Source of the DNA: a virus
Taxonomy: Duplodnaviria > Heunggongvirae > Uroviricota > Caudoviricetes
Direction: 5' to 3' (one strand)
Length of the DNA: 64,000 nt
IMG/VR virus record: IMGVR_UViG_3300011904_000029
Location: 6,312-70,311 of that record
How positions within the stretch are numbered: position 1 is the first letter of the stretch; each line of letters starts with the position of its first letter. Shown here piece after piece: positions 14,854 through 61,006 of this stretch. The notes under the pieces are model-generated. The model saw nothing but the letters and a program-made list of their open reading frames with translations. It searched no databases and was not told the origin of the DNA. The position numbers were made by a program, and so were the translations under genes.

Positions 14854-15570
14854 TTAATTTAAAATTTCAATTTTTAATTTCTTCCTTCCCCATTGCCAAA
14901 CTCTATCCCTATCAGCAATATATAAGTCTAGTATTTTACCTTTTATTGCTCCTCCACGATCTTGGCAAATTCTTGTCCCTACACTCTCAATGTTAATTTT
15001 TGTACCAAATGGAATATGTGGTGGGCAAGCAATAGTTACGCCTTCTTGAACATAAGCTCCACTTGCAGTTTTTCCATAACCTTTATCACCAGGACTCTTG
15101 CCAGTTGACTCATATCCAGCATGGTAAGCAGTAACTTCATAATAATCAACTTTACCAGATGAGTGACTACTTTTATTTGAGCCACTCATATTAGGGCCTG
15201 TATTGCTTTTACTCGTGTTAACACTACTAATGCTTAATCTATTAACCTTATCTTTTAGCCTATGTATTTCATCATCTTTAACTTTAATCTTTTTCCTTAA
15301 ATCTTCATTATTTTTATTTAATTCATTATTATCTTCCTTTAACCCTTTAATTTCTCCTCGCTGCTTTTCCAATTGACTGTTCTTATTGTAAACCTGATCC
15401 ATCAAAACCCTTTTATTTTTCTCTAGCTCATCAATCTCTTTCTGCTTATCTCCAATTGTCTTATTCATATCGTCCACTTTGTTTTCATATTTTACGACTG
15501 TATTCACATTTGCTCCAATCGCAACAGTTAAAGCAAGAGATATGAATATTGCCTTTTGATTAAAATTCAT
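14854..15570 (-). CDS. secreted coiled-coil protein with C-terminal 3D (MltA-like) cell-wall domain
   Basis: 238 aa; N-terminal signal/TM segment, long Lys/Glu-rich coiled coil, C-terminal YYEVTAYHAGYESTG...GKILDLYIADRD 3D-domain signature. Confidence 0.5.
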   Translation of the reverse strand: MNFNQKAIFISLALTVAIGANVNTVVKYENKVDDMNKTIGDKQKEIDELEKNKRVLMDQVYNKNSQLEKQRGEIKGLKEDNNELNKNNEDLRKKIKVKDDEIHRLKDKVNRLSISSVNTSKSNTGPNMSGSNKSSHSSGKVDYYEVTAYHAGYESTGKSPGDKGYGKTASGAYVQEGVTIACPPHIPFGTKINIESVGTRICQDRGGAIKGKILDLYIADRDRVWQWGRKKLKIEILN

Positions 15571-15628
15571 AAGTCCTCCTATTGATTTTTCGTGTTGTTC
15601 TCCGGCCTCCTTTCTATTAATTTATTTA

Positions 15629-15657
15629 ATTGTAATATTTTATTTAATATATGTCAA
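15629..15657 (-). promoter_or_regulatory. sigma-A-type promoter TTGACA-17-TACAAT (conserved family)
   Basis: minus strand TTGACAtatattAAATAAAAtatTACAAT; -35 15652-15657, -10 15629-15634. Confidence 0.55.
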
Positions 15658-15671
15658 TATGTATTTTCAAT

Positions 15672-16916: not shown

Positions 16917-16930
16917 TCATCTCCATAATT

Positions 16931-16959
16931 ATTATAATATATTTATTTTAGTTCAATAA
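16931..16959 (-). promoter_or_regulatory. possible promoter TTATTG-17-TATAAT immediately upstream of methyltransferase gene
   Basis: minus strand TTATTGaactaAAATAAATatatTATAAT, -10 only 4 nt from ATG at 16926. Confidence 0.3.
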
Positions 16960-17058
16960 AAATTTATTTTATAAATCTACGAGTAATCCCTTGTAATCTA
17001 AGATAAAATAAAACTCTTCTTTTATCGGTATCTCCATACTGTGCAACTCATCTTATTC

Positions 17059-17469
17059 TTAAGCCTCTACAATTGGGAAGTGTATACCATTTACAACAAA
17101 CGAACCTACAGAATAGTAATATCCACCATTCCCTGCATCTGCTGTCATTTCCGCCAAAGCGATTGGGTTTTGGTTGTGGAATAATGTAACTTTAACTTCA
17201 TTTACATTTGTATCACTATCTGGAATATTAATTTGTTCACCGACTTGTACGTTTGTAATAACCGCATCCAATTCAACATTGCTGAACGACCCTCCTGCAT
17301 AAGCACAACAATCACTCTCACTCATTTCAAGTGTAATGATTGTACCATCATCTAATACAAGCTTGTTTTCATTCCATTCTACAATACGTTTATAAAGTAA
17401 AAGTTTATTTAAATCATTTAAATCTCCATAGTTCATCCGTATAGCCCTCCTAATCTTTTTATCAATCAC
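17059..17469 (-). CDS. hypothetical protein
   Basis: 136-aa ORF. Confidence 0.4.
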   Translation of the reverse strand: MIDKKIRRAIRMNYGDLNDLNKLLLYKRIVEWNENKLVLDDGTIITLEMSESDCCAYAGGSFSNVELDAVITNVQVGEQINIPDSDTNVNEVKVTLFHNQNPIALAEMTADAGNGGYYYSVGSFVVNGIHFPIVEA

Positions 17470-17486
17470 TTGATAAAATTAAGGTT

Positions 17487-17861
17487 TTATTTGTCTTTAT
17501 GTTGAGGTGATACCTCACGCACCTCAACAGATACAATGATATGATTTAGATCATTTTTGCTTCTTTGGAGTCTTTCAGTGATCATTGTTAAATTATTGGC
17601 GCTCTTGTAGTTGCCATTATCCAATTCAAAGTGAATAGCTTTACTGATATTACTGTGTAGATTTTTTACTCTATCTCTATGTGCTTTCAGTATTTCATTG
17701 TGCGAATTCTCATAATTGCTTGATTTTAAGTCTGTAGTTAACTGTTTTAGAAGATTACAGTAAGTGTTCATTAATGTTTTAATAGCATTATAATGTAAAT
17801 TTCTAAATTCAAATTCTGCATTATCTAGTGTTAGTGTCATATTTTTAATTGTCTTTTCCAT
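17487..17861 (-). CDS. hypothetical protein
   Basis: 124-aa ORF. Confidence 0.4.
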   Translation of the reverse strand: MEKTIKNMTLTLDNAEFEFRNLHYNAIKTLMNTYCNLLKQLTTDLKSSNYENSHNEILKAHRDRVKNLHSNISKAIHFELDNGNYKSANNLTMITERLQRSKNDLNHIIVSVEVREVSPQHKDK

Positions 17862-17927
17862 TTTTTATTCTCCTTTGACGATTGGTCGTCACCCTATAAT
17901 TATTTAAATACTTATTTTGATATGGTA

Positions 17928-18161
17928 TTACTCATCCATCAGTGCAAAGAATGTTGCAATGTTATGATTTCCACCAGCTCGTTGCGCCACTTTAATTTTA
18001 TTTTCTTCTGAAAGAGTGTTCCAAATAGATGACAGTTCACTAATAATCTCTTCAAATGTTTTACCTTCTGTATCGACTTCAACGAAGCTAAGATCTGCGT
18101 TTACTATCGTAAAGTTTAAAGCCTCAATTACTAAAACTATTTCATTTGAGTTCAGCTTCAC
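17928..18161 (-). CDS. hypothetical protein
   Basis: 77-aa ORF. Confidence 0.35.
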   Translation of the reverse strand: MKLNSNEIVLVIEALNFTIVNADLSFVEVDTEGKTFEEIISELSSIWNTLSEENKIKVAQRAGGNHNIATFFALMDE

Positions 18162-18197
18162 TTTTATGTCTCCCTTATTCTCAATAAACCTAAAATT

Positions 18198-18443
18198 TTA
18201 TTTCTTTGTATCCCATTTAACTTTATTATTAATTTCTTTGATTATAAGTTCTGCAATTCTCTTCCCTTTAGTTTCATTTTCTAGAGTGTCAAAGCGTTGC
18301 TCTAATTTTTCTAATCGGTAATTTATATTTGTTAAAAAGCAAACAAAATCATCAAGTGAATTGATACTGGGTTCTTTTATTTCACCCTTAAACTTCATCA
18401 CAACATTTCCATTGTCATCTATAACCTTAATATTCTGATCCAT
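18198..18443 (-). CDS. hypothetical protein
   Basis: 81-aa ORF. Confidence 0.35.
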   Translation of the reverse strand: MDQNIKVIDDNGNVVMKFKGEIKEPSINSLDDFVCFLTNINYRLEKLEQRFDTLENETKGKRIAELIIKEINNKVKWDTKK

Positions 18444-18486
18444 AATTACATCTCCTTTTATTTATTGGATTAAAATAAATTCTAAT

Positions 18487-18762
18487 TTATAACAACGATC
18501 CATCCATGATTAGAATACTAGTGTCTGAGCTATTAAAATCTTCAAGTACCAAATGAGGATCGACCAGCTTTCCGTCCTCGCTTGGTGCTTGACTAAATCT
18601 TACTAATGCATAATCTTCTGGAACTAGCTTACATTCTTCAAGAAGCACTTCAAGTTCACTTTCATCACCAGCGACAACTTCAATGTACTTTTTAACTGCA
18701 TCAACATCGTCCTTAGCTTTAATTAATGCGTAATAAGGATCAACAATTTCATAGATATTCAT
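18487..18762 (-). CDS. hypothetical acidic protein
   Basis: 91-aa ORF with AGGAGG RBS. Confidence 0.4.
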   Translation of the reverse strand: MNIYEIVDPYYALIKAKDDVDAVKKYIEVVAGDESELEVLLEECKLVPEDYALVRFSQAPSEDGKLVDPHLVLEDFNSSDTSILIMDGSLL

Positions 18763-18859
18763 TTTTTTAGCCTCCTCTTAAAATTAATCTCTCGTTTACT
18801 CCGTTTTCCTTCGCTTTTCATCCTCATTTTTACAATAAAATAGTGGTTTTAATTGATTC

Positions 18860-21154
18860 TTAAGCTGTCAATAACTCCACCTCTTCTTTTTCCATCCAGT
18901 TTGTTTCCGTTATTTCTAAGTCAACCACAACTGGAACTTTCATCCATTTTACATCTTCCATAATTTTCTTAATATAAGGGAAAATCCACTCCTCTCCTTC
19001 ATATACTAAAAATTGTAGTTCGTCATGAATATTTGCTAATGGAAGTGTTTTGCAATTATGTTTACGTAGGAACTCGCCAATCTCTACTACATAACTTTTT
19101 AATAGATCAGCACAAGAGCCTTGTACTAAATAGTTCCCAACTTTATATGCTTTTTCCGTGTCAGATAAATAATAAACTCTTCCATACATGTTTGTAGCGA
19201 AGTTGTCTTTTTGAATCTTCTTTGAAACTTCTCTTTGGTACCTTGCTACTTCTGGAAAAGTATTAGACCACCCAGTGACAAGAGCGTTTGCTACTTCCAT
19301 TGAAACTTCAAGAGATTCAGAAGCTTTTTTTGCTCCACCACCGTAATTCCGCATAAAGTTAAAAGTTTTTCCGATATTTCTCCAATATCCTCTAAAAGTT
19401 TTCTCGTCAATTATTGGCTTTTCATTATGTGAGTATTTCTTATATTTTTCTTCTGTAACATATTTCAATGCTTCTAATGCATTATGAGTAGTTTCGCTAT
19501 GTACATCGGTTGGAGTCCAATGGGTACCGTCTTCTTGTATCCAAGCAGATTTTCCTTCTGGAGTTTTTTCTGACCACCTTTTACGATCAGCATCATTCTC
19601 AAATTGATACATTTCACCTGTTAAATAATGTTTGCAGTACAGTGGCATATAAGCTCTGCATAAATTTAAATCAGGTTTTCCTAATAACACACTGTAATTG
19701 GCCTGTGCTCTCAATTCAATCTGGGAAAGGTCAAAATAGGCAATTTTACTATATTTTCCACCTCGTACTACAAATGCCCTCCTGGGAGAAAATATCTCCA
19801 TTTCTATTGGTGCTTTCCCTTCCCCATGCTCTTTTTCATATTTTTCTCCTTCTTCAGTTAAAATTCTTTCTTTAGGAAATTGTTGTGCATCTGATCCCAA
19901 TCTTCCTGAGACAGTGTTAAATTGTCCATACTGGGTATAAAAGTTTCCATCATACTCTGCAACTTCCATAATCCTTGAAATATATGTAGATTGCCATTTT
20001 TCTAGACGCCTTAGCCTCGTTATAATTTGTGCAACTCGGTTATCTTTGTGTTTTTTTAAAAACGCCTTATCAGTAGAACCTATTACTTCTCCTGTAATTT
20101 TTTCAAAGTATTCTCCTATTACTTTGCTTTGTGAGACAGTAAAATACTCTCCTACAATTTCCCACATTTCCTCGTATAACTTTTGGATTTCTTGATCACA
20201 TTTTACAAAAGAATCCTGTAAATAATCCATATTTACAGTCATTCCTACACGTTCCATTCTTAATAATTCCATTAACAATTTATTTTCTTGTTGAAAAAGT
20301 TTTTGTTGTTTTCGTTGTAAAATGTTTATATAAAACTTTTCTACAATTTCTAATGTATAAATTCCGTCACTATGAACATATTCCATCATTACATTTTTAT
20401 CTACTTCTGAATAGTTTGCAAAAGGATGTTCTTCCATCCACCTAAAATAAGCTTCTTCTACTTCTTTTGGAACTTCCAGCCATCTTTGCTTACGTTCTTT
20501 TGTAAACATATCCATATCATTGCGTTTTTTGACTTTATAGGCTTCTTTTAATTTCCCTATGCCCCATCCCAGTTCTTTTAATATCTCCTTTAGGATATTT
20601 CGTTTTTGGTCATTTATTTTTCTTAATTCCTTCTTTACCTCAGATTCAAATTCTGCTGCTCTTTCATCAATGTACTTTTCTGAAACCTTTTTTAGCCCTA
20701 ATAAATCTCCACCATCTCTAGCTGAAACTGCATCGAATGAAAATCTACAAATTCCCATTGTGTCAGAAATATTTGAGAGATTGAAAACTTCCTCTTCTGG
20801 TATCCCCCCATTAATCATCATATGGAGATCGAATTTTGTGTTGTGCCCCACTGCCATTTGAAATTTTTTTATAAGCTCTACAACTTGTTTCAATATTTCT
20901 GTACCATGTTCAAATGCAAACACTCTTCCCTTAAAATTTTCCTTTTGTTTTTGTTTAGGTAAAAGCCAGCCAAATACCCACATAAACGGTTTATCTTTTT
21001 TAATATGTAATCCTGTAGTTTCCGAGTCAAATACACAAAGCTTTGGATTATCTTCATAAAAATAATTATTTATTTCACTAAAACTTGTTACCCAGTATTT
21101 CTTATATTTAAATGTTACTTCAGTTTCTAGTTTAGGAGAGATTAATATAACTTT
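18860..21154 (-). CDS. family A DNA polymerase with 3-prime-5-prime exonuclease domain (true start upstream of track ORF; no canonical start codon in frame)
   Basis: motif A YFDLSQIELRAQ, motif B RNIGKTFNFMRNYGGG, motif C LANIHDELQF; Exo II HNTKFDLHMM; Exo I VFDSETTGL lies in frame upstream of the track start 20983, frame open to 21154. Confidence 0.8.
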   Translation of the reverse strand, partial: KVILISPKLETEVTFKYKKYWVTSFSEINNYFYEDNPKLCVFDSETTGLHIKKDKPFMWVFGWLLPKQKQKENFKGRVFAFEHGTEILKQVVELIKKFQMAVGHNTKFDLHMMINGGIPEEEVFNLSNISDTMGICRFSFDAVSARDGGDLLGLKKVSEKYIDERAAEFESEVKKELRKINDQKRNILKEILKELGWGIGKLKEAYKVKKRNDMDMFTKERKQRWLEVPKEVEEAYFRWMEEHPFANYSEVDKNVMMEYVHSDGIYTLEIVEKFYINILQRKQQKLFQQENKLLMELLRMERVGMTVNMDYLQDSFVKCDQEIQKLYEEMWEIVGEYFTVSQSKVIGEYFEKITGEVIGSTDKAFLKKHKDNRVAQIITRLRRLEKWQSTYISRIMEVAEYDGNFYTQYGQFNTVSGRLGSDAQQFPKERILTEEGEKYEKEHGEGKAPIEMEIFSPRRAFVVRGGKYSKIAYFDLSQIELRAQANYSVLLGKPDLNLCRAYMPLYCKHYLTGEMYQFENDADRKRWSEKTPEGKSAWIQEDGTHWTPTDVHSETTHNALEALKYVTEEKYKKYSHNEKPIIDEKTFRGYWRNIGKTFNFMRNYGGGAKKASESLEVSMEVANALVTGWSNTFPEVARYQREVSKKIQKDNFATNMYGRVYYLSDTEKAYKVGNYLVQGSCADLLKSYVVEIGEFLRKHNCKTLPLANIHDELQFLVYEGEEWIFPYIKKIMEDVKWMKVPVVVDLEITETNWMEKEEVELLTA

Positions 21155-28948: not shown

Positions 28949-28982
28949 CTCCTTAAAGTTTATAAATCAATATTACTCTTCT

Positions 28983-29011
28983 ATAATACTAATTTATTTA
29001 ATATATGTCAA
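28983..29011 (-). promoter_or_regulatory. sigma-A-type promoter TTGACA-17-TATTAT (conserved family)
   Basis: minus strand TTGACAtatattAAATAAATtagTATTAT; -35 29006-29011, -10 28983-28988. Confidence 0.55.
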
Positions 29012-41235: not shown

Positions 41236-41466
41236 GTACGGTGGCTGAATGCCACTGGTTGCTAATCATCGAAAACGATGATTTAACACTACCTTTTTCC
41301 TATAAATTATACAACGCTTATATAGTATTTACTATATAAAATTCCAAATTATACTAGTTATTGTTCGTTGTACAATTTATACAAAAACCACTTCATATAT
41401 TTATTTAATTTTTATGTATAAATCTTAACCTATTCTATACAGTAGGTCAAGATTTAGAAGCATATA

Positions 41467-42462
41467 TTACCCATATAATTTTTCGACATTTTTTTCATTT
41501 ACAAACTGTTTTATATATGCCGTATTGTAATAAGTGTAGTCCTTCACAGTTATGGGGCTTAAATTGTACTTAATTGCTATCTTTTCAAATTCTTCATATT
41601 CGATTTCATTTGAGAACCCTTTTTCTTTTTTATCTTGAAGCAGCTTATATGCCATATAAATCATCCCTGATCTTGTCAATGACTTTGGTGTTATATCTTG
41701 AAAGTCGAAAAGTTCCGCAATCATTTTTATTCTATTCAATATTGTTATCTGACTAACTCTTTCTCCTTCCTTAACTCTGCCTCTTCTAACGTTTTTAATT
41801 ACATAATCACTCTCAACGATCTGAGAAGTTGAAAATCTCCCTTCTTCAACTGTTCCATTCCTGTTTAAATATTCATCATTACTATAATGAGCCTGTCTTA
41901 TTAACTCAATAACATCGTCTTCAAAATAGACAAATCTTTCTCCTTTTACATCATCATATAATCTCACTTTCCCAGTTTCTTCTTCTACATCAGCCCATCT
42001 TAAGTTTCTTAACTCACTGCTCTCTGTGCCATAAACTCCCTCAAATAATAAACGTAAAACCACTCTATCTTGAATATTTACTAAGTTGTTATATATATAA
42101 TCGAGTTCCTGTTTTGAAATAAACTGCTTAATGTCTTTATCAATAAACTGTCTATACCATTCTCTGTCTAAATTCTGCATAGGATGAATGTTGCTTGTTC
42201 GTAAATTATTCTTAATAGCCCACGCTATATATTGTGAAATAAAATTTCCTCTTGTTACTGCTACATTTAACGATTTGGGGTTTGAGTTAGCAATTACAGA
42301 ACCAATTTGATCTAGTGAAAAATCATACAAATCTTTCCCTAAAGGGACTTCATTCCCATAGGCATAATAAAAAATATACTCTACAACGTTTCTTGTCGTT
42401 TCACTATCATAGGCATCATTTAAAAATCTTTTTTTGATATCTTCATTATACATTTTATGCAT
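41467..42462 (-). CDS. tyrosine-recombinase-fold protein with degenerate active site (YopR-like repressor candidate)
   Basis: 331 aa; box I-like VLRLLFEGVYGTESSELRNLRWADV retained but box II reads SLTRSG (His replaced by Ser). Confidence 0.45.
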   Translation of the reverse strand: MHKMYNEDIKKRFLNDAYDSETTRNVVEYIFYYAYGNEVPLGKDLYDFSLDQIGSVIANSNPKSLNVAVTRGNFISQYIAWAIKNNLRTSNIHPMQNLDREWYRQFIDKDIKQFISKQELDYIYNNLVNIQDRVVLRLLFEGVYGTESSELRNLRWADVEEETGKVRLYDDVKGERFVYFEDDVIELIRQAHYSNDEYLNRNGTVEEGRFSTSQIVESDYVIKNVRRGRVKEGERVSQITILNRIKMIAELFDFQDITPKSLTRSGMIYMAYKLLQDKKEKGFSNEIEYEEFEKIAIKYNLSPITVKDYTYYNTAYIKQFVNEKNVEKLYG

Positions 42463-42463
42463 A

Positions 42464-43828
42464 CTAAGATTTCACCATACCCTTTACGTCTATTTCTTTA
42501 AAGTAATTTGCAATATTTTTTCTTAATTGATTTGTGTCTCTTTCAATATTACCTTTCTCATTTAACACACCAATATCTTTCCATAATGGATTGTCTTTTG
42601 AGAAATCAATGCTCTTTACAACCTTTCTGATTTCTTTTGCTTTTATATCAGATTCATACATACGTCTTGCTATGACAATATATCCCACAAACACGTTATT
42701 GTCATTAATCAATGAATTCTTTCTTGTTTCTTCAACTTTAAAAATAAACTCGTCTTGATAAGACCCAATTAGCATATTGAAAAATTCAACAAGAAAATCT
42801 CCTACATCCGCTGCGTCTGCACGGGTATTCATGATAAATTCTTGATCTATTGTATCTGCCAACACGTTATACGAAACTAATTCGTTTGCAATTGTTCTTA
42901 CTCTATTCGTTTGAGAAATCCTACCCTCTAGATCGCTTTCCGTCTTAAGCTGCTGAACAACACTGTCCGAGTACCTTTTCGATTCCCACTCTTGAACTCT
43001 TACGGTAGAGATAGGGGTAGCTTTTGCTACCTGAGCCTGTTCAGCTCTAAATTTCTTTTTTGTAAAATTACTTATGACAACAATGAAGTCATGCTGAATA
43101 TCTTTGTTGTTCATCAAAGCGTTTCTAATGGCAGTAATTCTGTGAAACCCATCACCAATCGCAAGTTCAGTTCCTTTATTTATCTGTAATGTCTGATGCG
43201 TGGGATCATACTCTAATTCATTTCCGGTTTCACTACTTCTTACTAACGCATTCCAAACTAATGGAGGAGTTGTTTTTGCTAATGTTCCATTGATGAGATG
43301 TTGCTCAATTTCTCTTACATTTGTCATCATCAACTTTGGCTTTTTTCTTACTGTCCCATCTTTGCCCTTCACTAATACAGCCTCTCTTTGTAATTCGTAA
43401 TCGTAAATTAATAATTGATTTTCAACTAACTCATTAATAGTATGCATATCGATCCTTACAGAAAATACGCCATCTCCCTCTACTCTAGCGTTTTTCAAAA
43501 CTATAGGAAAGTCAACTTCTTCACGATAGACAGATGCATCATATGTTTTTGCTATATCTTTTTCAACATCAGTAAAATAATCACTTGGATTTATATTATA
43601 AGTAACGCCGCATTTTGCGTAAATCTGCTCAGTAATTAAATATAACTCCCTAATATCTAAATTAGATAGCGATTCTTTCGCATTACTGATCCATGTTTGA
43701 ACTTCTCCAGCTAATATATTGTGTTTGCTTACTAAGTGTAATTTAATATCATTAATAATTTTCTTATCTCTTTTAATAGCTTGGATAGCTTGAGTAAGAT
43801 TTTCTTCTAATAACTCTCTATCATTCAT
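42464..43828 (-). CDS. DGQHR-domain (DndB/ParB-like nuclease superfamily) protein
   Basis: 454 aa; motif ELAIGDGFHRITAIRNAL corresponds to the DGQHR signature of DndB-like proteins. Confidence 0.5.
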   Translation of the reverse strand: MNDRELLEENLTQAIQAIKRDKKIINDIKLHLVSKHNILAGEVQTWISNAKESLSNLDIRELYLITEQIYAKCGVTYNINPSDYFTDVEKDIAKTYDASVYREEVDFPIVLKNARVEGDGVFSVRIDMHTINELVENQLLIYDYELQREAVLVKGKDGTVRKKPKLMMTNVREIEQHLINGTLAKTTPPLVWNALVRSSETGNELEYDPTHQTLQINKGTELAIGDGFHRITAIRNALMNNKDIQHDFIVVISNFTKKKFRAEQAQVAKATPISTVRVQEWESKRYSDSVVQQLKTESDLEGRISQTNRVRTIANELVSYNVLADTIDQEFIMNTRADAADVGDFLVEFFNMLIGSYQDEFIFKVEETRKNSLINDNNVFVGYIVIARRMYESDIKAKEIRKVVKSIDFSKDNPLWKDIGVLNEKGNIERDTNQLRKNIANYFKEIDVKGMVKS

Positions 43829-43897
43829 CTATTTCACCTCATTTATATATTACATTAAGCAATGACACCTGTAAAACAGTTATTAATATAAATTTAT

Positions 43898-45400
43898 TTA
43901 CCCAATTTGATCATAGTCTTCTTTATACATCCATCTGTATCCACCAGCTGATTTTCGGCGACCTTGGCAAACTAGTGATATTCCATTAGCACTTTTCATA
44001 TTTAAATGCTTTCTTGCTTTTCCCATACTTTCCCATGATTTGATAAATCTTCCATCATGTGTCAGCTGAACAATTTCTTTTGATTTTATTAGCGCCCCTG
44101 TATTTTTCTTTGAATCATAATCACACCAACCGATTTTGGCTCCCTGTTTTAAGAATTTAATTGCTGTATTTCTTCCTATATTAAGTGTTTTAGATATCTT
44201 TAATGAGCACCTTACTCCCATATTCCATAAATCACTTGCATCTTTTACTAATGTTGAACAAGCAAATTCGTGACACTTTAACCACTCAATATTGGAAAAA
44301 TTGATTAGATTTATAATATCGCTATTTAGAATACCTACTTTTATCCAGTCTATATTTGAATATCTACAATCCAATACAATATAATTAGCAATTCCGTTTT
44401 CTTTAGCTAATTCTTTTTTTAATTTGTCGTTCTTTTTAACTTCAATTAGGCTACCTCCTTTAAATCCTTCTTCATAATGCTGTAACCCATGTGTCTCTAT
44501 TATCATATTTAAATCAGGAATATAAAAGTCATACCTCTTATATCCAACAATATCCTCATCTTTAAGTTTTACATTTTTTGACCAACTAAATATTTTCTGT
44601 GTTTCAAATTCCATGTTTAATTGCATGAATATGCCAATAACGAATTTTTCTGGATAACTAAATCCATCAGAACATCTTGAGCAGCTAAATCCTTGATTGA
44701 CAACATTATCTATAAATTTCATTTCTGAGTTACTACATTTTGGACAAGTAAACCTTAGTTTTCTTTGACTCCCTTTAGATACTTCATATCCTATGCGGGG
44801 ATCAGATAAAAGACTCGCTACATCAGGATTAGTCGCCCATAGGCAATTCGTATGATTTACTTTTTTTCCAGTACAATATGGGCAATTATTACCATTAACT
44901 TTATTAGCTATTGTCATGGAATATTCACTTTTGCATAATAAACAATTCCACTTATACTTGATTCCAGAAGACTTAAATATCTTGTCTGGCGTACAATCAT
45001 TTTTATTACTAAACTCAAGCAATATATAGTTTTTATTATTTTCTTTTACCCAATATTCTAAAGTGTGTTCATACGACATAATTTCTCTTTTAGTTATTTC
45101 GGCTTTTATACTACCACATCTTCTACACCTATCAATTCCATCTCCAGCTTGTCGACTTGAGATAATTTTAGAATAACTTTGATTCTTAATCACCTCATTA
45201 CAGTCATCACAAATCTTAGTAACCTTTACATTAGAATTTTTAGGTAGATCGCTGACGCTTATTAGTATTTTTGTATTAGGTGGAACTGTTAGTCTTCCTT
45301 GATTATTTTTACGTCTTGGTATGTGATACCCCAATAATTCATAATATTTATCAGTTTTTAATCCACATCTTACCCATATTTCTTTCTCTAATATAGCCAA
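43898..45400 (-). CDS. zinc-ribbon / PD-(D/E)XK-like homing endonuclease paralog (family 3 of 3) with C-terminal NUMOD1-like DNA-binding tail
   Basis: 500 aa; CxxC...GH repeats; YDFYIPDLNMIIETHGLQHYEE...KENGIANYIVLD nuclease block; C-terminal ...SAGGYRWMYKEDY. Confidence 0.55.
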   Translation of the reverse strand: MAILEKEIWVRCGLKTDKYYELLGYHIPRRKNNQGRLTVPPNTKILISVSDLPKNSNVKVTKICDDCNEVIKNQSYSKIISSRQAGDGIDRCRRCGSIKAEITKREIMSYEHTLEYWVKENNKNYILLEFSNKNDCTPDKIFKSSGIKYKWNCLLCKSEYSMTIANKVNGNNCPYCTGKKVNHTNCLWATNPDVASLLSDPRIGYEVSKGSQRKLRFTCPKCSNSEMKFIDNVVNQGFSCSRCSDGFSYPEKFVIGIFMQLNMEFETQKIFSWSKNVKLKDEDIVGYKRYDFYIPDLNMIIETHGLQHYEEGFKGGSLIEVKKNDKLKKELAKENGIANYIVLDCRYSNIDWIKVGILNSDIINLINFSNIEWLKCHEFACSTLVKDASDLWNMGVRCSLKISKTLNIGRNTAIKFLKQGAKIGWCDYDSKKNTGALIKSKEIVQLTHDGRFIKSWESMGKARKHLNMKSANGISLVCQGRRKSAGGYRWMYKEDYDQIG

Positions 45401-45424
45401 TATTACACCCCCTGTAAAACTTTT

Positions 45425-46465
45425 TCAGTCGCCTAATTGTGTCATTTCTTTTAGTTTTAAATTTAACAATAATATTTGATCCTTAGTAAGAGATGAAATG
45501 CCTTTCAACAACTCTTCATGAGAAACTTTTTTAAATAATTGATCATCAATATCACCCTTGCTAGACACAGCTCCCAATACACCCAAATCACGTTCGCCAA
45601 TATATATCAGCAGATTCTCCATATTCTTATGTCCAGAAGCCTTTTTTGCTTGTAGTAAGTCATTTGTCAAGCGATACTGGAACGTTACTCCGGCTTTACG
45701 AAATGAATGGAAGACCACATTTCTCTTATCTTCAAATTTTAATTGCCTTTTTATATAATTCATCATACTTTGAATTGAGGTATCACTTATATCAAATACT
45801 TTATTTGTACCTGATTCATTTTTTATTTGAACTAATTCTTCATAAAACTCTTTAGAGATTCTTAAATTCCTCTCTTCATTCCCCTTATCAACTGCCCTAA
45901 TCTCAACCTCATCATCATGTAAAATAAAATCATCCCAAGTCAAATTTAATAATGCACTTTTACGTAGGCATGTATCCATTGCAGTAAGGATTAGATAATA
46001 TTTTGTTAGACGCTTTCTACCTCTAGGTTGATTTTTTACTAGTTCTGCTGCCTGAAAAACCTCCTCAACTGTTAACACTCCATGATGATTTTTTCCTTCC
46101 TTAAGCCTATCTGCCTCATCAAATGCTGCCAGATTTTCTATATAACCTCTTCTATATAGCTGTCCATAAAATTGATTAACCGTTGAAATTTTCCTGTTTA
46201 TAGATTTATTTAATAATCCTCTGTCATTCTTTAGATAAATTTGAAACTTTACTATATCATCATCATTTAATTTAACATCATTTTTATTTAAAAATTCAAT
46301 TTCTTTTTTAGCTTTAAACTTAAAAAAATCTCTAATGTCGCTATCATAAGCTTCTCTTGTTTTTAGACTCTCACTTCTCATTGTTTTCTTTTCTAAGAAT
46401 AATATGATCTGTTCGTATATTTCTGATCGATTAATTTCAACGACCTCAGCCAACATTATAACCAC
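45425..46465 (-). CDS. tyrosine recombinase / integrase-family protein (catalytic residues intact)
   Basis: 346 aa; box I AMDTCLRKSALLNLTWDDF, box II VVFHSFRKAGVTFQYRL, GHKNMENLLIYIGE with candidate Tyr nucleophile. Confidence 0.65.
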   Translation of the reverse strand: MVIMLAEVVEINRSEIYEQIILFLEKKTMRSESLKTREAYDSDIRDFFKFKAKKEIEFLNKNDVKLNDDDIVKFQIYLKNDRGLLNKSINRKISTVNQFYGQLYRRGYIENLAAFDEADRLKEGKNHHGVLTVEEVFQAAELVKNQPRGRKRLTKYYLILTAMDTCLRKSALLNLTWDDFILHDDEVEIRAVDKGNEERNLRISKEFYEELVQIKNESGTNKVFDISDTSIQSMMNYIKRQLKFEDKRNVVFHSFRKAGVTFQYRLTNDLLQAKKASGHKNMENLLIYIGERDLGVLGAVSSKGDIDDQLFKKVSHEELLKGISSLTKDQILLLNLKLKEMTQLGD

Positions 46466-46682
46466 TCCTTAATAATTTAATTCCTTCTCAAGAATCATTA
46501 CAATATTCTTTGCTTCCCTATAAAGCCTTTGTTTGTCCTTTTTAGTCCATTTCTTAAGGTTTCTCTTTATGTATCCAAACGTATTTGACGACACTTCTCC
46601 CATCCTCTCCATTCATTATATATTATTATGTTCAAAAGTACAAATTATAACTATTATATAAATTTATTTATCTTTAGTTCTT

Positions 46683-52574: not shown

Positions 52575-52845
52575 CCTAATATTATATACAAACACTTGTT
52601 CTTTATGCAAGGTGATTTTAATTGGTAAAAATTTTACACTTTATTCCAGCGATATTCTAATACGTCTGTTATGTATTTATGTATATTCACTATTAATCTC
52701 TCTTGGTTCTATAACACCTTCATAGTGAAGTCCTTCATTTTTTAAGCTTTTCATGATCTTATGTATAAGTTCCTTGGCATCTATTTCTTCTTCTGTCCTC
52801 AACTCCCCATTTATCCTAAAAGTTTTCAACACAAATACACCTCCA

Positions 52846-53046
52846 TTACTTTATTTCATGGCTAAGAAGCTTCAAATAACCCTTAATCATTTTCTTGCGA
52901 ATATCTCTAGCTTCTTTCTTGTTACTATGTGCGTAAGTATCTGCTGTCAAGAAATCAAAATTAGCACACTTTTGATATGCTTTAGTATATCTATGTTCTT
53001 GTAAAGATAATACTCTCCTCTCCATACCCAAATATCCCCCATGCAT
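52846..53046 (-). CDS. hypothetical small basic protein
   Basis: 66-aa ORF (possibly starting at internal MERR...) downstream of TTTACT-16-TGcTATAAT promoter near 53060-53090. Confidence 0.35.
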   Translation of the reverse strand: MHGGYLGMERRVLSLQEHRYTKAYQKCANFDFLTADTYAHSNKKEARDIRKKMIKGYLKLLSHEIK

Positions 53047-53413: not shown

Positions 53414-53595
53414 ACCTCCATTTATTCATATGTATTTATTTTATTAATAGAAGCTATAAATTGATCTTGCTGTTATTTCAAATTGAAGTGAGTGATTTTT
53501 ATGTTTGGCTGATATATGACTGTTTTAATTTTAAAACTTATCTCTAAATGAATTGACTGTTTTATTGAATTAATCTTCAATAATATTTTTTCGCA

Positions 53596-54817: not shown

Positions 54818-55123
54818 TTACATTTTATAGTGTAAATTAATATTAAAATCTTGTTGTAATTGGTAAATCATATATAAACCATCTAAGCCAAACTCTTTCG
54901 CATATTTAAAGGCCAAATCACGTTCAAATCCATAAGCAATATATTTAGCAGCAGTCTTGATGATTAAAGGAGAGTGTTTTGTGAAGTCTATATCTTTATG
55001 ATCCGTACACACTGCCATAAACTCATTAATTGCACTTTGGAATTTGTTCTCTTTATGCATACGTGTATCCAATGCCTTGAAAGCTTCGGACAGTAATTTT
55101 GCATTACTCATTTCTTCAGTCAA
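54818..55123 (-). CDS. hypothetical protein
   Basis: 101-aa ORF. Confidence 0.4.
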   Translation of the reverse strand: MTEEMSNAKLLSEAFKALDTRMHKENKFQSAINEFMAVCTDHKDIDFTKHSPLIIKTAAKYIAYGFERDLAFKYAKEFGLDGLYMIYQLQQDFNINLHYKM

Positions 55124-55325
55124 CTTAGTCCCTCCCCTCCATAAAATTAGAATTTTACTGTGAAATCCAGTGATAATTTTCTAATGCTGTTATATTAAAA
55201 TCTCATTTTGCAGATCTTTTTCTCTCTTCTTTATATATGTTGATTGCAATCTCTACCATAGATCTGTAAAACTCATCAATTTACTGTAAATACCTGGCGA
55301 TAAAGCCATTATGCTGTTATATAAA

Positions 55326-55673
55326 TTATAACCCCTCTGCCATCCCCAGGCTTACCATAATAGCATTATCAACTTTATTCATTGTGAATTGATCCAAGGC
55401 GGTTATTTTGCCTTCTAATCGCTTCTTATCAATGGTTCTTATCTGCTCTAATAATACCACGGAATCTTTAGAAAGACCGTATCTTTTAGCATCTAATTCA
55501 ACATGAGTAGGCATCTTCGCTTTTTGTATTTGACTAGTCACAGCAGCAACAACGGTTGTTGGACTATAGTGGTTCCCAATATTATTTTGAATTACGAGTA
55601 CAGGTCTATATCCACCTTGTTCACTTCCTCTTGTAGGACTTAGATCTGCGAAGTAAATGTCACCTCTTTTCAC
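55326..55673 (-). CDS. mazF: MazF/EndoA (PemK-family) mRNA interferase toxin
   Basis: 115 aa from GTG; [66 protein letters not shown]... closely matches the Bacillus EndoA sequence as recalled. Confidence 0.85.
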
Positions 55674-55798
55674 CCCTGAACACTCCCTCTTGTTTATAAT
55701 TTAATTTATTTTTATCTCTAATTACGCCAGCGATTTTAAGCTAATGCTGATATATGTATTTTTCAATCACTGGCCTGGTTAGAAATAGAAACATTGTT

Positions 55799-56173
55799 TT
55801 ATTGATTTATGATATAACCATGCATCAAGCTTGCCAATTTAGCTGCTCTTTTTACCGATAACTCAATCCAATTATCATCATTTTTATCTGTGTAGCAAAT
55901 CAAAGATAATTTCATATTTCCGTTCATGTCTTTACCAATAAATAGTGATCTCTCTACATCTTTGGAGTAAGTGCTAATTTCTTCATTATAAGCCTTATCT
56001 TCTGGGATTACCTTTTCAATTTTGTTAATACCATTTAAATGTTTTTCAATTTTATTTAATATATATAAAGCTTCATTGTCATCAAGAATCGCTCTATAAT
56101 AACCTCTCTTATCAGAATCACTGGTGAATCTCATTATTACTGATTTCCCTTTTGTTTGAAGTTCAATGCTCAT
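55799..56173 (-). CDS. hypothetical protein
   Basis: 124-aa ORF. Confidence 0.4.
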   Translation of the reverse strand: MSIELQTKGKSVIMRFTSDSDKRGYYRAILDDNEALYILNKIEKHLNGINKIEKVIPEDKAYNEEISTYSKDVERSLFIGKDMNGNMKLSLICYTDKNDDNWIELSVKRAAKLASLMHGYIINQ

Positions 56174-56268
56174 GTTAGACCTCCTAAATATCTCAATATA
56201 TTTATGTATTTGTTGTAATAAAACCCTTCTTTTATTAAATTATTAACTACATACTTTCTCCGTACTGT

Positions 56269-56460
56269 TCACCAAATTCTTTTACCGTTGGGTTCTCCTA
56301 ATAGCCTATTTGCTTTGCAATACAAGAAGTATTGGTCATTGTGCGAAATACGCATATTCTCATTGGTGCGCCTAGATTCAAGGAATACTCTGTAATATGT
56401 TTTGGCAAACTCCTCAAGCTCGGAAAGTCTCTTCTCTAAGTCCTTTGTCAAAAAAATCAC
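56269..56460 (-). CDS. hypothetical protein
   Basis: 63-aa ORF (probable TTG start a few codons in). Confidence 0.3.
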   Translation of the reverse strand: MIFLTKDLEKRLSELEEFAKTYYRVFLESRRTNENMRISHNDQYFLYCKANRLLGEPNGKRIW

Positions 56461-56490
56461 TCCTTCACAACTTATATCTAAACTTGTTTA

Positions 56491-56589
56491 TTAAAACCAT
56501 CCAAATTCAGATGCTAAAATTTGAATAATAATCCATAGAAATGCCAATGTGAATGGGACTTGTATGATAGCTATTATAACCCAGAGCAT
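56491..56589 (-). CDS. 32-aa hydrophobic peptide (small membrane protein)
   Basis: GGAGTG RBS 7 nt before ATG; MLWVIIAIIQVPFTLAFLWIIIQILASEFGWF. Confidence 0.3.
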   Translation of the reverse strand: MLWVIIAIIQVPFTLAFLWIIIQILASEFGWF

Positions 56590-56622
56590 ATCTTCACTCC
56601 TTCACAGTTTCTCGGTACTGTT

Positions 56623-56808
56623 TTAATCAAAATGCAGTAAATTAGTCTTTATCACATGTTCCTTTTCTAAAGAGTATAGTTTTGCATTATGTTTTTCAGC
56701 ATATTCTTTTGCCAATTTGATAGCATCCTCATCATTTTTAGCTTCGTGAAGTATTTTTACTGAATTGGATTTTTGTTTATGTTTTCTTATCAGCAACCTA
56801 TATTCCAC
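56623..56808 (-). CDS. hypothetical protein
   Basis: 61-aa ORF. Confidence 0.3.
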   Translation of the reverse strand: MEYRLLIRKHKQKSNSVKILHEAKNDEDAIKLAKEYAEKHNAKLYSLEKEHVIKTNLLHFD

Positions 56809-56861
56809 ATATTCGATTTTAATCCCTCCTTTTATTCTTTAATAAAAACCCTTCTTATACG

Positions 56862-57053
56862 CTAATCGTGTAATTTATATTGCTCCAGTTTTACCAGATC
56901 GCTTTTAAGTTCATTTAACCTTTTTTCTAATAAGTTTCTACTGGCGTTCAGTAAATGATCGTTTGTCAGGCTTTTCGTAATTGCATTGATTTCATTTTGT
57001 ATAAATAAAACCGCATACTTGAACGCCATACGTTCGTGTTGTATTGGAATCAT
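56862..57053 (-). CDS. hypothetical protein
   Basis: 63-aa ORF. Confidence 0.3.
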   Translation of the reverse strand: MIPIQHERMAFKYAVLFIQNEINAITKSLTNDHLLNASRNLLEKRLNELKSDLVKLEQYKLHD

Positions 57054-57140
57054 TCCTCTTTCACCCTCCTACACCTGTATTATTCTAAGATAAATCGCTC
57101 GTTTATCTCATATAAAAGAATAGCCTAATATCATTGTTAA

Positions 57141-57335
57141 TTAATTTTTATTTGATATTTTAAATTGCACCTTTTCAAAAGTAGTGCCATCTGCGACTCC
57201 GACATAGCCATCGTTAGCATTTTCATAATATTCTTTTGCCTGTTTTAAAGCTTTTGCTTGGCTATCTGCTTTTACATCAATCTCATAAGTGTATGTTTCA
57301 GTGATTTTAACTTTAAAATCTTTCATTTTCTCCAC
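57141..57335 (-). CDS. hypothetical protein
   Basis: 64-aa ORF. Confidence 0.3.
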   Translation of the reverse strand: MEKMKDFKVKITETYTYEIDVKADSQAKALKQAKEYYENANDGYVGVADGTTFEKVQFKISNKN

Positions 57336-57341
57336 CTCTTT

Positions 57342-57533
57342 CTATGAACTATAAGTAAAAAGTTTAACGCCAATAACATTATTTCTTTCGCTTGATTCTA
57401 ATTTATTCAAAACCATATTCATAGCAGTTATGTTGTCGTTGGATTCAGCTATTATTTCTCTAGGAGGTTTACTGATAAAAGATATTTTAATCATAAATTT
57501 TTTCATTTCGATTTTTCCTTTCTTTGTTTGCAC
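57342..57533 (-). CDS. hypothetical protein
   Basis: 63-aa ORF. Confidence 0.3.
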   Translation of the reverse strand: MQTKKGKIEMKKFMIKISFISKPPREIIAESNDNITAMNMVLNKLESSERNNVIGVKLFTYSS

Positions 57534-57566
57534 AAATTGTATCTATCGCTTGATAAATCGCTCGTT

Positions 57567-57944
57567 TTATTCATTTCTATAAAGATCGTTCAATAGTTCT
57601 CTTGCTATATCAGCTAACTTTGAAATATCACCTGTATACACACACTCATTAATTAATTGTCTAATCTCTTCCTCGTTCATATGCTCCAACATTGTTAAAC
57701 CCACATCTTCTCCTGTCTTATTTACTTCTTCCTGCTTTTCAAAAGAATCGTCAAATGTAATCAATTCATCTTCATCAATTCTACCTTCGTTCAAAATATA
57801 TGGATTCCAGTCTTTATATTCACATACTTTTTCCCATAGTCCTAAATTCATTATTTGTCTTGCTGTCATTGTAATTTCCGACATTATGCATACCCCTCTA
57901 TAAATTAAATGTACCAGACTTCGAAAGACTCTCAATTTGATCAA
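57567..57944 (-). CDS. hypothetical protein
   Basis: 125-aa ORF. Confidence 0.35.
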   Translation of the reverse strand: MIKLRVFRSLVHLIYRGVCIMSEITMTARQIMNLGLWEKVCEYKDWNPYILNEGRIDEDELITFDDSFEKQEEVNKTGEDVGLTMLEHMNEEEIRQLINECVYTGDISKLADIARELLNDLYRNE

Positions 57945-58143
57945 TTGCTTCTTGAAACTTTTTATACTCTCTTGGCAATATTCCCAAACTACCCATTAAA
58001 ACTGCTGAGTCATGATTATATCTATTAGCCTCGCAAATGGTTTTAAACTTGTATAACAATTCATCTACAGAATCACTACTCTCAATATACGCCTGTGTCG
58101 ATCTAATATTTGAATGGTCTGCTTGACTCATGTTTTTATTCAC
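57898..58143 (-). CDS. hypothetical protein
   Basis: 81-aa ORF. Confidence 0.3.
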   Translation of the reverse strand: MNKNMSQADHSNIRSTQAYIESSDSVDELLYKFKTICEANRYNHDSAVLMGSLGILPREYKKFQEAIDQIESLSKSGTFNL

Positions 58144-58345
58144 TCCTGACTTTCTCTATTCCTTTAAATTCATAGGTATAAATTAGTTCGCTTAAAAACT
58201 TATCTTTATCCCAAACTTCAATTCTATTTTCATTTTCTTCAACATCTTTAACTTCTACAATGTCACCATTAGACCACAAGTAGTCTCCTTGTGCTATGCA
58301 GGATACATCAACGATCTTAATTAAGTCTCCTTTTTGTACTTCCAA
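58136..58345 (-). CDS. hypothetical protein
   Basis: 69-aa ORF. Confidence 0.3.
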   Translation of the reverse strand: MEVQKGDLIKIVDVSCIAQGDYLWSNGDIVEVKDVEENENRIEVWDKDKFLSELIYTYEFKGIEKVRSE

Positions 58346-58769
58346 GCTAATCCTCCCTTATTAAGTCAATCTCTAATTCTACTGTGCCGTTAATTATCTC
58401 TCCACAATTATAAACTTCTGCCTGTGAACCATCGGTAAAATTTATTATCAAGCCATCATCATTGTTTGTTATTTCTGAAATTATTTTCCCCTTAAATTCA
58501 TCGTACATTTGGTTATTTCTCCTTATTTCCTTAGTTGTCCCCGACTTATTGATATACTTCTATTTCATTATAGGTTTGTTTTAAATCTCTTATTTTTGGC
58601 TCAGTATAGCCAGCATTCCTAGTTTCGATTATTGCATCAGTTAAACTTATATAATCCCATCTTGACAGCCAAAATGCTTTTATTTGATTCTTCATGTGTT
58701 TTGTCATTGTTTATTCCTCCCGTTTCTTTTTTAAGATTTTATTGCATCACGTTAAGATGTCTATTTTAT

Positions 58770-58961
58770 TTAGATATCGCTATTCTGACAATTGTTACAA
58801 AATAAGTGATAGCTTTCTCCGATAACATTATCCTCCTCATCACATAATTCATGGTCAAATATACTGCAATCTGTACTTCCACATTTCAAACATTTAATTT
58901 GAAATAAATCATCATTATATCCTTCTATATTACTCATACTAATCTCCTTTAAAATGCTCAC
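58770..58961 (-). CDS. hypothetical Cys-rich protein
   Basis: 63-aa ORF with CxxC pairs. Confidence 0.3.
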   Translation of the reverse strand: MSILKEISMSNIEGYNDDLFQIKCLKCGSTDCSIFDHELCDEEDNVIGESYHLFCNNCQNSDI

Positions 58962-58962
58962 T

Positions 58963-59250
58963 TTATCTATATTTTCCTATCAGAAACTCAATGTACCTAT
59001 TCATCTCATCTTTAACTGCCAGTCTTGATTGAATAATTCCATGTCCAATTTCAACATGACTAATTTCTGTATTGATTTTTGTCTTGTATGGCTCTTCGAC
59101 ATTTGATCTAATCTGTAACCATCTCCTCCTGCCTTTTGCAAAAGAATGAGTCGACCAAATATTGTTTAATATATAATCAAAATGATTTGCAGTCTCCCAA
59201 GCTTCACTAACCTTTTTTAGTTTTTCTTCATAATCTTTAAATTGATTCAT
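58963..59250 (-). CDS. hypothetical protein
   Basis: 95-aa ORF. Confidence 0.35.
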   Translation of the reverse strand: MNQFKDYEEKLKKVSEAWETANHFDYILNNIWSTHSFAKGRRRWLQIRSNVEEPYKTKINTEISHVEIGHGIIQSRLAVKDEMNRYIEFLIGKYR

Positions 59251-59275
59251 ATTTCACCTCTGTGTAAAAATCATT

Positions 59276-59617
59276 TCATTCTGAAATAATTTCCATAATT
59301 CTTTTTAACTGATCTAGTGTTAAATCTTTTTTAGCCCACATACTAAACTTACTTTCTATTCGAGAAAATAACTGCTCATATTCTCGTTCGTCTAAAATTT
59401 CTTGCCTTGAAAAGTATAGTTCATAATCTGGAGCATAGTCTGTTGCTTGTTTAAGAGTCTCAATGTAATATTTCTTTGCTCTAGCTATGTCTAACTCAAA
59501 ATATTTTCTCCCCACTTTTACAATCTCTGCCTCTAGTATTTCTTTGTTTCCCCATCTTTCCGCATTATTCACTGGCTTTAAATAGACTTTTCTTCCAACT
59601 TTAATTTTCTCTTTCAT
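59276..59617 (-). CDS. hypothetical protein
   Basis: 113-aa ORF. Confidence 0.35.
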   Translation of the reverse strand: MKEKIKVGRKVYLKPVNNAERWGNKEILEAEIVKVGRKYFELDIARAKKYYIETLKQATDYAPDYELYFSRQEILDEREYEQLFSRIESKFSMWAKKDLTLDQLKRIMEIISE

Positions 59618-59635
59618 TTTTATTAGTCTCCTTAT

Positions 59636-59878
59636 TTACTTCTTTTCTAAATCATCTAAATCGATCCCGTAAATGCTTTGAATCCAATCTTTAATAGTAT
59701 AGTCCCATCCACCAAGTAAACCATTCCAAGATAACACTTCTTTAAACACTTTACTACTTGTTATATGTAGAAATTTTCTATCCATTGAATTATCATCTTT
59801 TTCAAGACCTGCACGTTGTCTTAAATATTCGACAATTTCCATCGGATACCTTTTCTCTAATTGCTTCGTATAATCCAT
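59636..59878 (-). CDS. hypothetical protein
   Basis: 80-aa ORF. Confidence 0.3.
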   Translation of the reverse strand: MDYTKQLEKRYPMEIVEYLRQRAGLEKDDNSMDRKFLHITSSKVFKEVLSWNGLLGGWDYTIKDWIQSIYGIDLDDLEKK

Positions 59879-60573: not shown

Positions 60574-60644
60574 CCAACTTACTCCTCAGCGATATTTTTC
60601 ACTTTCTGTTATGTAACTTAAATTAATTATACTATTTTATTTCA

Positions 60645-60923: not shown

Positions 60924-61006
60924 TAATATCCTCCTTTTTAGCGATAATTGAAGGCGACTGTTATATAGTGAAATGCAGTGATATTTTCAGTCGCCTGTTA
61001 TATGCT

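Follow-up and report, generated by a model that had tools for sequence, protein, structure and literature searches.

We report that a solitary mazF gene, encoding a PemK/MazF endoribonuclease, is present in a 64,000-nucleotide stretch of DNA (hereafter the window) that corresponds to positions 6,312 to 70,311 of the IMG/VR virus record IMGVR_UViG_3300011904_000029 (Caudoviricetes) and lies on contig DAMDKB010000005.1 (164 kb) of assembly GCA_032100165.1. The GC content of the window is 31% and nearly all its genes are located on the minus strand, including mazF (55326-55673; 115 amino acids, aa; GTG start) and the open reading frames (ORFs) next to it, ORF124 upstream (55799-56173) and ORF101 downstream (54818-55123). 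A Shine-Dalgarno sequence, AGAGGGAG, read from the sequence at 55683-55690 (minus strand), is located 9 nucleotides (nt) 5' of the GTG codon. Copies of an intergenic repeat lie around the gene on the same strand: S3 (55727-55758; sense reading ACATATATCAG-N12-ATCGCTGG) ends 53 nt 5' of the mazF start, S2 (55294-55322) begins 3 nt past its stop codon, and S1 (55167-55195) ends 43 nt 5' of ORF101. The spacer between S2 and S1 (55196-55293, minus strand), which we call the "empty cassette", holds no ORF. An independent assembly of the same sequencing run reproduced positions 55013-59834 exactly, and megablast of the mazF locus against phage records gave no match.

The initial annotation, made from the sequence alone, had identified the gene product as a homologue of MazF/EndoA, and this is borne out by the database searches. 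The protein matches Pfam PemK_toxin (PF02452; E-value 9e-37) over residues 2-108 of 115, falls in PHROG 1936 ("MazF-like growth inhibitor") and matches the solved structures of EndoA/MazF from Bacillus subtilis and Bacillus anthracis at an E-value of 5e-50. Compared with B. subtilis EndoA it is of equal length and identical at 79 of 111 positions (71%). The alignment, which had been proposed as a check for inactivating catalytic substitutions, showed that Arg25 and Thr48 (B. subtilis numbering) are retained as Arg23 and Thr46 and that the RNA-binding segments are fully kept; in B. subtilis MazF the T48A substitution abolishes activity (PMC10769878). Judged by its sequence, the phage mazF is intact with no sign of inactivation, and it is predicted to encode an apparently active, sequence-specific endoribonuclease.

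The B. subtilis MazEF system (EndoAI/EndoA, ndoAI-ndoA), a type II toxin-antitoxin (TA) operon, thus has a toxin with which the phage protein shares length, the catalytic Arg and Thr and the RNA-binding segments; the phage gene differs in that no mazE ends a few nt upstream of it and in that it is phage-borne, in a single-gene cassette. That there is no adjacent MazE-like ORF had been noted before and is upheld here, since no same-strand ORF of at least 20 aa is present in the gaps of 125 nt upstream (55674-55798) and 202 nt downstream (55124-55325) of mazF, and no antitoxin of the ribbon-helix-helix (RHH) or AbrB type is encoded directly upstream. The neighbouring ORFs, likewise described earlier as unlike RHH or AbrB proteins, belong to no Pfam or PHROG family and are without relatives among viral contigs or in a set of 5.8 billion proteins, and the structure model of the orphan protein ORF124 is poor (predicted local distance difference test score, pLDDT, 45). 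Among the 80 closest chromosomal mazF loci, used as a comparison set, an RHH-type mazE ends at most ~14 nt from mazF in most cases. In ~15 of the 80 (Clostridia metagenome-assembled genomes and Isobaculum melis) the order is alr, a gap of 70-180 nt and mazF, with no profile-detectable MazE-like ORF, and solitary mazF genes are therefore not limited to phages.

The search for MazE homologues with a hidden Markov model (HMM), suggested in the initial annotation, was done with a profile built from 63 MazE proteins of chromosomal mazF loci, which was run on all six frames of the window and on ~27 kb of extra flank (two fetches; in total ~91 kb of prophage). Nothing convincing was found there and no RHH- or AbrB-type antitoxin. 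The top match in the window was a 66-aa ORF (52846-53046; E 0.004), which aligned over the linker only (...KKMIKGY), and the second was a 100-aa ORF, ORF100 (9926-10228; E 0.23); we return to both below. A 47-aa ORF outside the window with a weak match to the profile (E 0.1) was set aside as it is without the toxin-binding part. As to RNA antitoxins of type III (ToxIN-like) or type I, the repeats are dispersed and not tandem, RNA folding in the spacers and repeats is no better than in shuffled sequences, no consistent pairing is evident and there is no match to any Rfam family.

A sister prophage of Siminovitchia sp. 179-K, which is a closer relative than the phage Perkons discussed below, has a MazF that is 91% identical to that of the window. 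Comparison of 14 kb of the window with 16 kb of the sister prophage revealed a single block of DNA homology (444 bp, 55755-55312, 85% identity), which starts at box 1 of S3, takes in mazF and stops at box 1 of S2, and the genes on either side are unrelated; the left limit of the shared DNA is S3 and the right limit falls between the two boxes of S2. Elements resembling the repeats are present on both sides of the sister mazF and upstream of the gene that precedes it. The single S3-to-S2 block argues that mazF moves as a single-gene cassette with its junctions inside the repeats and, as far as the two sequences can tell, that it travels alone; short-homology recombination at the repeats would then exchange such cassettes between related phages. 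In the sister prophage neither ORF124 nor ORF101 lies beside mazF, the 202-nt spacer is absent and the downstream gap is 58 nt; since only mazF is shared, the neighbours and the spacer cannot be a co-inherited antitoxin. The S2-S1 spacer is similar to the leader downstream of S1 over its first ~14 nt and more weakly over its remaining length (p ~0.03), and this interval looks like an emptied cassette.

The element that carries the gene is an integrated SPbeta-like temperate prophage of a Bacillaceae host, given its content of SPbeta gene homologues and a serine recombinase gene next to host comG genes. Specifically, the window has homologues of SPbeta yopP, yopQ and yopR/mrpR (found by phmmer) and of yopS, yopV, yoqD (Ant), yoqJ and ligB, and also yolD-uvrX, a SinI-like gene and a replication and nucleotide-metabolism block; a yonV homologue lies just outside it. 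At the prophage end, the gene for a 577-aa large serine recombinase adjoins host comGC (a fragment), comGD, comGF, yqhG and a gene for an SNF2 helicase (15511-20510 of the flank record beyond window position 1), which suggests that the prophage is integrated within or beside the comG operon. Homologues of MrpR (SroF), YopQ and YopP, the components of the sro repressor operon, are all encoded in an sro-like lysogeny operon (41467-46465, minus strand) that consists of an mrpR-like gene (41467-42462), a yopQ/DndB-like gene (42464-43828), a 500-aa ORF (43898-45400) and a gene for a yopP-like integrase (45425-46465). The MrpR-like protein matches Pfam MrpR_N_CB (5.7e-25) and MrpR_C_cat (5e-23) and is only 28-33% identical to SPbeta MrpR.

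Psychrobacillus phage Perkons is the sequenced phage that comes nearest with respect to MrpR (44% identity, E 1e-80). Its ORF37, annotated as PemK/MazF, is also a solitary mazF (57% identity) located in the early region ~13 kb upstream of mrpR, as in the window, and the order of modules is common to the two; the gene is not discussed in the Perkons paper. In the Siminovitchia prophage mazF lies 4 kb upstream of the integrase-DndB-MrpR operon, and its presence upstream of mrpR in both relatives marks a solitary mazF as a conserved trait of the lineage. Perkons differs from the present prophage in that its MazF is only 57% identical, in having few copies of the intergenic repeat near mazF and in having a promoter-like repeat of its own, an exact 16-nt sequence, TATACTATAATTAAGT, before the Spx-like ORF36 and before mazF (3409-3424 and 3885-3900 of the Perkons locus). 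The Perkons mazF leader has two UACAU sites. In the sister prophage, the early region holds a ParE-toxin gene and a 73-aa upstream partner (6036-6522) between repeat copies, and this region appears to collect toxin genes.

The repeats had been recognized in the initial annotation as three copies of a 12-mer. Three exact copies of ATGCTGWTATAT indeed occur in the 64 kb (55184-55195, 55311-55322 and 55744-55755, the last having been given one position off), against 0.02 expected, and they extend to a 29-nt bipartite repeat, CCAGYGAT-N9-ATGCTGWTATAT on the plus strand. The suggestion that they constitute an operator or small RNA signal of mazF did not hold, as they belong to a set of no fewer than ten copies that are spread across the early region, and the element recurs in two related phages. 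The three are the most similar members of an oriented element that marks gene boundaries throughout the lineage. On the gene strand the consensus is ATAWCAG-N12-ATCRCY (in a wider form AYATAACAG-N10-AWTATCRCTG), with eight exact copies in the window against 0.01 expected, all of them sense-strand and intergenic, and none on the antisense strand. The window copies span 52.6-61.0 kb and lie 14-172 nt 5' of the next start codon; two more just outside the window bring the number to at least ten in the prophage, and there are nine in the sister prophage (eight intergenic) and three in the Perkons loci. Apart from those at mazF, exact copies (all minus strand) precede uvrX-yolD (52648-52672), the SinI-like gene (53491-53515, with a one-mismatch copy at 53452-53476) and a 65-aa ORF (60588-60612, 14 nt 5' of the ORF), and a tandem pair (60940-61001) follows a methylase-helicase gene and heads a cluster of small genes. 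The spacers of this tandem pair, GGCGACTG and CAGTCGCC, are mutually complementary and could form a 9-bp hairpin just past the methylase-helicase gene.

A scan for promoters of the sigma-70 type gave no match at the repeats, the number of matches in the scan being that expected by chance, and no convincing sigma-A hexamers were seen at them; moreover, some repeats are only 14-17 nt from a start codon, which argues against a promoter with box 2 as the -10 element. When viral contigs were scanned for the repeat in its long form, 11 single-copy matches were obtained, compatible with chance. The stoperators of mycobacteriophage L5 and the PeSL cassettes of T4-type phages are asymmetric, lie in short intergenic gaps and are oriented with transcription, and PeSLs mark points of gene shuffling between related phages. 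Such shuffling points match the S3-to-S2 homology block; the differences are that stoperators and PeSLs belong to other phage groups and have other sequences, and that our repeats show no evident stem-loop or sigma-A promoter. The MrpR operator of SPbeta, SPBRE (PMC10516654), which we recovered as AYAAAWAATATGTAT immediately 5' of SPbeta early genes, is likewise repeated, oriented and intergenic, and the present prophage also encodes an MrpR-family repressor. SPBRE is unrelated in sequence (AYAAAWAATATGTAT versus ATAWCAG-N12-ATCRCY) and is not enriched in the window. Many oriented copies in the intergenic gaps of early genes are what was found here, and by analogy with SPBRE the repeats are most likely operators of the MrpR homologue; a phage-specific promoter is the alternative. 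An AimR box at S3 (AGCGAT-N31-ATCACT, compared with ATCACT-25-AGTGAT in SPbeta; PMC9232636) was considered and rejected, as its half-sites are oriented opposite to those of SPbeta, it is present at S3 only and no AimR was found in the ~91 kb examined.

In phi3T and SPbeta, host MazF promotes lysogeny or prevents lytic growth. It is bound and neutralised by the phage proteins AimX and YosL, which are mimics of the C-terminal MazE helix, and yosL immediately precedes nrdI-nrdE in a lytic operon (PMC10769878; bioRxiv 10.1101/2023.04.27.537455). ORF100 (9926-10228, minus strand; 100 aa), directly upstream of a split nrdE, is a candidate for a corresponding antitoxin acting in trans. It is the top match in the window of both YosL and AimX, and its C-terminus has a MazE-like MazF-binding motif, DMAKAYGEMSDL (YosL, SMAQGYMEMGDI; AimX, EEMAKGYEEMAAI). 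A library-wide HMMER search retrieved the relatives P0003, P0005 and P0006. P0003, from a Siminovitchia fordii prophage, is 79% identical to ORF100 and its gene is also directly upstream of nrdE. P0006 serves as a bridge: it matches ORF100 at E 5e-4 library-wide and SPbeta YosL at 8e-7 in pairwise BLASTP, and when 2.3 Gb of phage records were searched with it, the yosL position of SPbeta-like phages was the sole place matched (E 2e-3, 87% coverage). In hhalign, the profile of the ORF100 family aligns with SPbeta YosL with a probability of 89% (E 2.3e-6, 76 columns), and the homology to YosL extends over the N-terminal domain as well as the MazE-like helix at the C-terminus. Its Met69 and Tyr73 are in invariant alignment columns that correspond to M14 and Y18 of AimX and Y82 of YosL, residues that when mutated abolish the binding or neutralisation of MazF (PMC10769878; bioRxiv 10.1101/2023.04.27.537455).

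This chain of HMM matches, together with the hhalign result and the invariant Met69 and Tyr73, identifies ORF100 at the level of sequence as a YosL-family protein, and as such it would neutralise the MazF of this phage. Features in common with YosL and AimX are an N-terminal domain of the YosL type, a C-terminal M-x3-Y-xEM motif and a gene that immediately precedes the nrd genes of a lytic replication operon; the differences are that MazF is here supplied by the phage as well and that no aimR/aimP/aimX module was found in the ~91 kb of prophage examined. The earlier description of mazF as an orphan toxin gene is thus right for the gene order, there being no adjacent antitoxin, but probably not for its function, as a candidate antidote, a YosL-family MazE mimic, is encoded 45 kb away.

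A conserved promoter of the sigma-A type, TTGACA-TATATTAAATAA-N5-TATAAT (10689-10718, minus strand), is located at the head of the ORF100 operon. It is one of three near-identical strong promoters on the minus strand, TTGACA-TATATTAAATAA-N5-TAtAAT (the others at 15628-15657 and 28982-29011), all of which head replication and nucleotide-metabolism operons, and the conserved spacer TATATTAAATAA could itself be an operator. The split nrdE next to ORF100 consists of ORFs 8944-9915 and 6489-7928, ~1 kb apart (region 6489-9915), and in the S. fordii relative an HNH/NUMOD homing endonuclease is encoded at the split site, which makes an intron or intein the likely cause of the split. The 66-aa ORF with the top match to the MazE profile, ORF66 (52846-53046, minus strand; C-terminal RKKMIKGYLKLLS), is YopM/SroA-like (E 0.005 for YopM), being similar in length to SPbeta YopM/SroA with a C-terminus comparable to RKQLTKGYMKLLS in that protein. 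SroA has been reported to bind MazE (bioRxiv 10.64898/2026.08.06.743204), and ORF66 may, by a weak link, also take part in the interplay of MazE and MazF.

The strict cleavage site of B. subtilis MazF is U^ACAUA, common to the Listeria and Staphylococcus aureus enzymes (bioRxiv 10.64898/2026.08.06.743204), and transcripts of phi3T and SPbeta have been reported to be rich in MazF sites. The window has 65 copies of UACAUA on the sense strand compared with 30 on the antisense strand, with ~28-30 expected on each (first-order Markov). Within the 119 genes there are 50 copies against 29.6±4.4 when synonymous codons are shuffled within genes, and none of 500 shuffles reached 50; the corresponding excesses are 49 versus 30.0±3.6 in Perkons and 20 versus 9.8±2.6 in the S. 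fordii prophage. The largest interval that is free of UACAUA on the sense strand, 41418-46573, is the mrpR/yopQ/yopP-like operon (0 versus ~5 expected), and Perkons, which shares both the excess and a site-free repressor operon, has no copy in the homologous operon (6787-10220 of the Perkons locus) where 4.8 are expected. Avoidance of the motif, as for a self-immune nuclease for host shutoff, was rejected, since the site is enriched on the phage sense strand and not avoided, which rules out that role. As a correlation, the pattern agrees with a published proposal in which preferential cutting of lytic messages by MazF promotes lysogeny. A UACAUA site is also present in the mazF leader (55753-55758, minus strand; overlapping S3), and autoregulation through it was considered and dropped, as the site is not kept in the sister Siminovitchia prophage.

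Taken together, the context points to an MazF circuit of the SPbeta type, to which the roles suggested in the initial annotation (growth arrest, superinfection exclusion or anti-defence) had not been related. The reading that we favour, with a confidence slightly above even, is that of a catalytically intact, phage-owned mazF within such a circuit, carried in an early cassette bounded by repeats and neutralised in trans by ORF100. By analogy with phi3T and SPbeta, where MazF is that of the host, early phage MazF would cut the UACAUA-rich lytic transcripts, the UACAUA-free repressor operon would be spared and the decision would tip to lysogeny. When the lytic programme expresses the YosL-like protein, ORF100, from the replication and nucleotide-metabolism operon 45 kb downstream, MazF would be silenced, and the host MazE, whose antitoxin role had been considered in the initial annotation, may add to its neutralisation. 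The binding of ORF100, the cleavage specificity, the timing of expression, the effect on lysogeny and the ligand of the repeats are points that we infer.

Several observations weigh against this reading. The likeness of ORF100 to YosL is modest and consists of a chain of weak-to-moderate matches plus synteny, its motif reads KAYGEM and not KGYMEM, and its single-chain structure model is poor (pLDDT 52). In Perkons, which has mazF, the YosL counterpart encoded upstream of the ribonucleotide reductase genes, ORF141, keeps the N-terminal pattern of YosL and differs from ORF100 in having no clear MazE-like motif, which limits the generality of the YosL argument. Within the window alone the site-free interval is marginal (p ~0.03 for UACAU and ~0.3 for the 6-mer), UACAUA is depleted in the sister prophage's early region, and the UACAUA specificity of the phage MazF is assumed from its 71% identity to EndoA. 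Moreover, aimR/aimP (arbitrium) were not found in the window and flanks, and the search for mazE covered ~91 kb of the 164-kb contig and did not extend to the rest of the host genome.

Among the alternatives, a defence or addiction module fares best, although we hold it to be unlikely. Here mazF would be on in the lysogen and restrained by host MazE, and MazF released upon superinfection or prophage loss would lead to growth arrest, phage exclusion or stabilisation of the prophage. MazEF belongs to the Bacillus core genome (bioRxiv 10.64898/2026.08.06.743204), the 70-73% identity of the phage MazF to Bacillaceae NdoA makes cross-binding by host MazE plausible, the early region of the sister prophage has its ParE-type pair, and PHROG files such genes under morons. 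However, mazF is part of an early cluster of the lytic type behind a repeat common to other early genes and lies away from both the repressor and the attachment site, the transcripts of the phage are themselves rich in the presumed site, which suits self-regulation better than anti-phage defence, and the phage itself carries a predicted MazF inhibitor.

It is improbable that the phage MazF is a decoy which titrates host MazE and so frees host MazF, as SroA/SroB do in phi3T, with its own RNase activity being secondary. SPbeta-family phages do activate host MazF by sequestering MazE (PMC10769878; bioRxiv 10.64898/2026.08.06.743204), and the YopM/SroA-like ORF66 is present, but the fully kept catalytic residues and RNA-binding segments would be needless for a pure decoy. 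More improbable still is a nuclease for host takeover, by which early lytic MazF degrades host mRNA and frees resources while the phage messages are protected: the location of mazF in the early region and the PHROG category "host takeover" agree with it, whereas the phage sense strands are enriched in UACAU/UACAUA above the codon-shuffle expectation and the phage is temperate with a full repressor operon. Finally, an unrecognized adjacent antitoxin, be it ORF124, ORF101, a small RNA from the ORF-less 202-nt spacer or antisense transcripts from the repeats, is the least probable, for although the gaps around mazF are unusually large, ORF124 lies on the usual antitoxin side (upstream) and the repeats read TGnTATAT on the plus strand, where S1 reads as an extended -10 element, the sister prophage keeps mazF at 85% DNA identity with both neighbours replaced and a downstream gap of 58 nt, the T at -7 that is invariant in -10 boxes is missing from S2 and S3, the repeats follow the strand of the genes at no fewer than ten sites, and no significant RNA fold, conserved pairing or Rfam family was found, as described above.

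Two further features of the window were recorded. Large paralogous proteins, each with a DUF4379 zinc-finger and CapR-homology domains, are encoded at 930-2576 and 43898-45400, and the latter gene is an insertion in the sro-like operon that separates its yopP-like gene from its yopQ-like gene. The sequences GGACC and GGTCC (GGWCC) are absent from the whole window, with ~7 and ~6 expected, respectively, which suggests avoidance of a restriction site of the AvaII type.

Taken singly, mazF genes in phages, YosL and repression of the MrpR type are known already; in the literature searched, no description was found of a lineage that combines them, of the separation of toxin and inhibitor genes or of the repeat family. 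More tentatively than for the circuit in this prophage, we propose as a possibility that an SPbeta-like lineage comprising this prophage, the Siminovitchia prophage and Perkons has internalised MazF as an effector of the lysis-lysogeny decision, with a pair of toxin and inhibitor that is split and separated in time, a transcriptome tuned to the toxin and a cassette that moves between phages via an oriented intergenic repeat, which would also be the operator of the MrpR-type repressor. In SPbeta and phi3T, host MazF decides lysogenisation and is tuned by AimX, YosL and SroA/B, and a relative with its own mazF, an inhibitor acting in trans, site-rich lytic genes and a site-free repressor operon would provide a compact natural test system; as Perkons is in culture the proposal is directly testable. 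A TA pair that is split over 45 kb and between temporal classes would be missed by TA finders that rely on adjacency, and the repeat family is a candidate for both an operator and a recombination junction in a group of large Bacillaceae phages.

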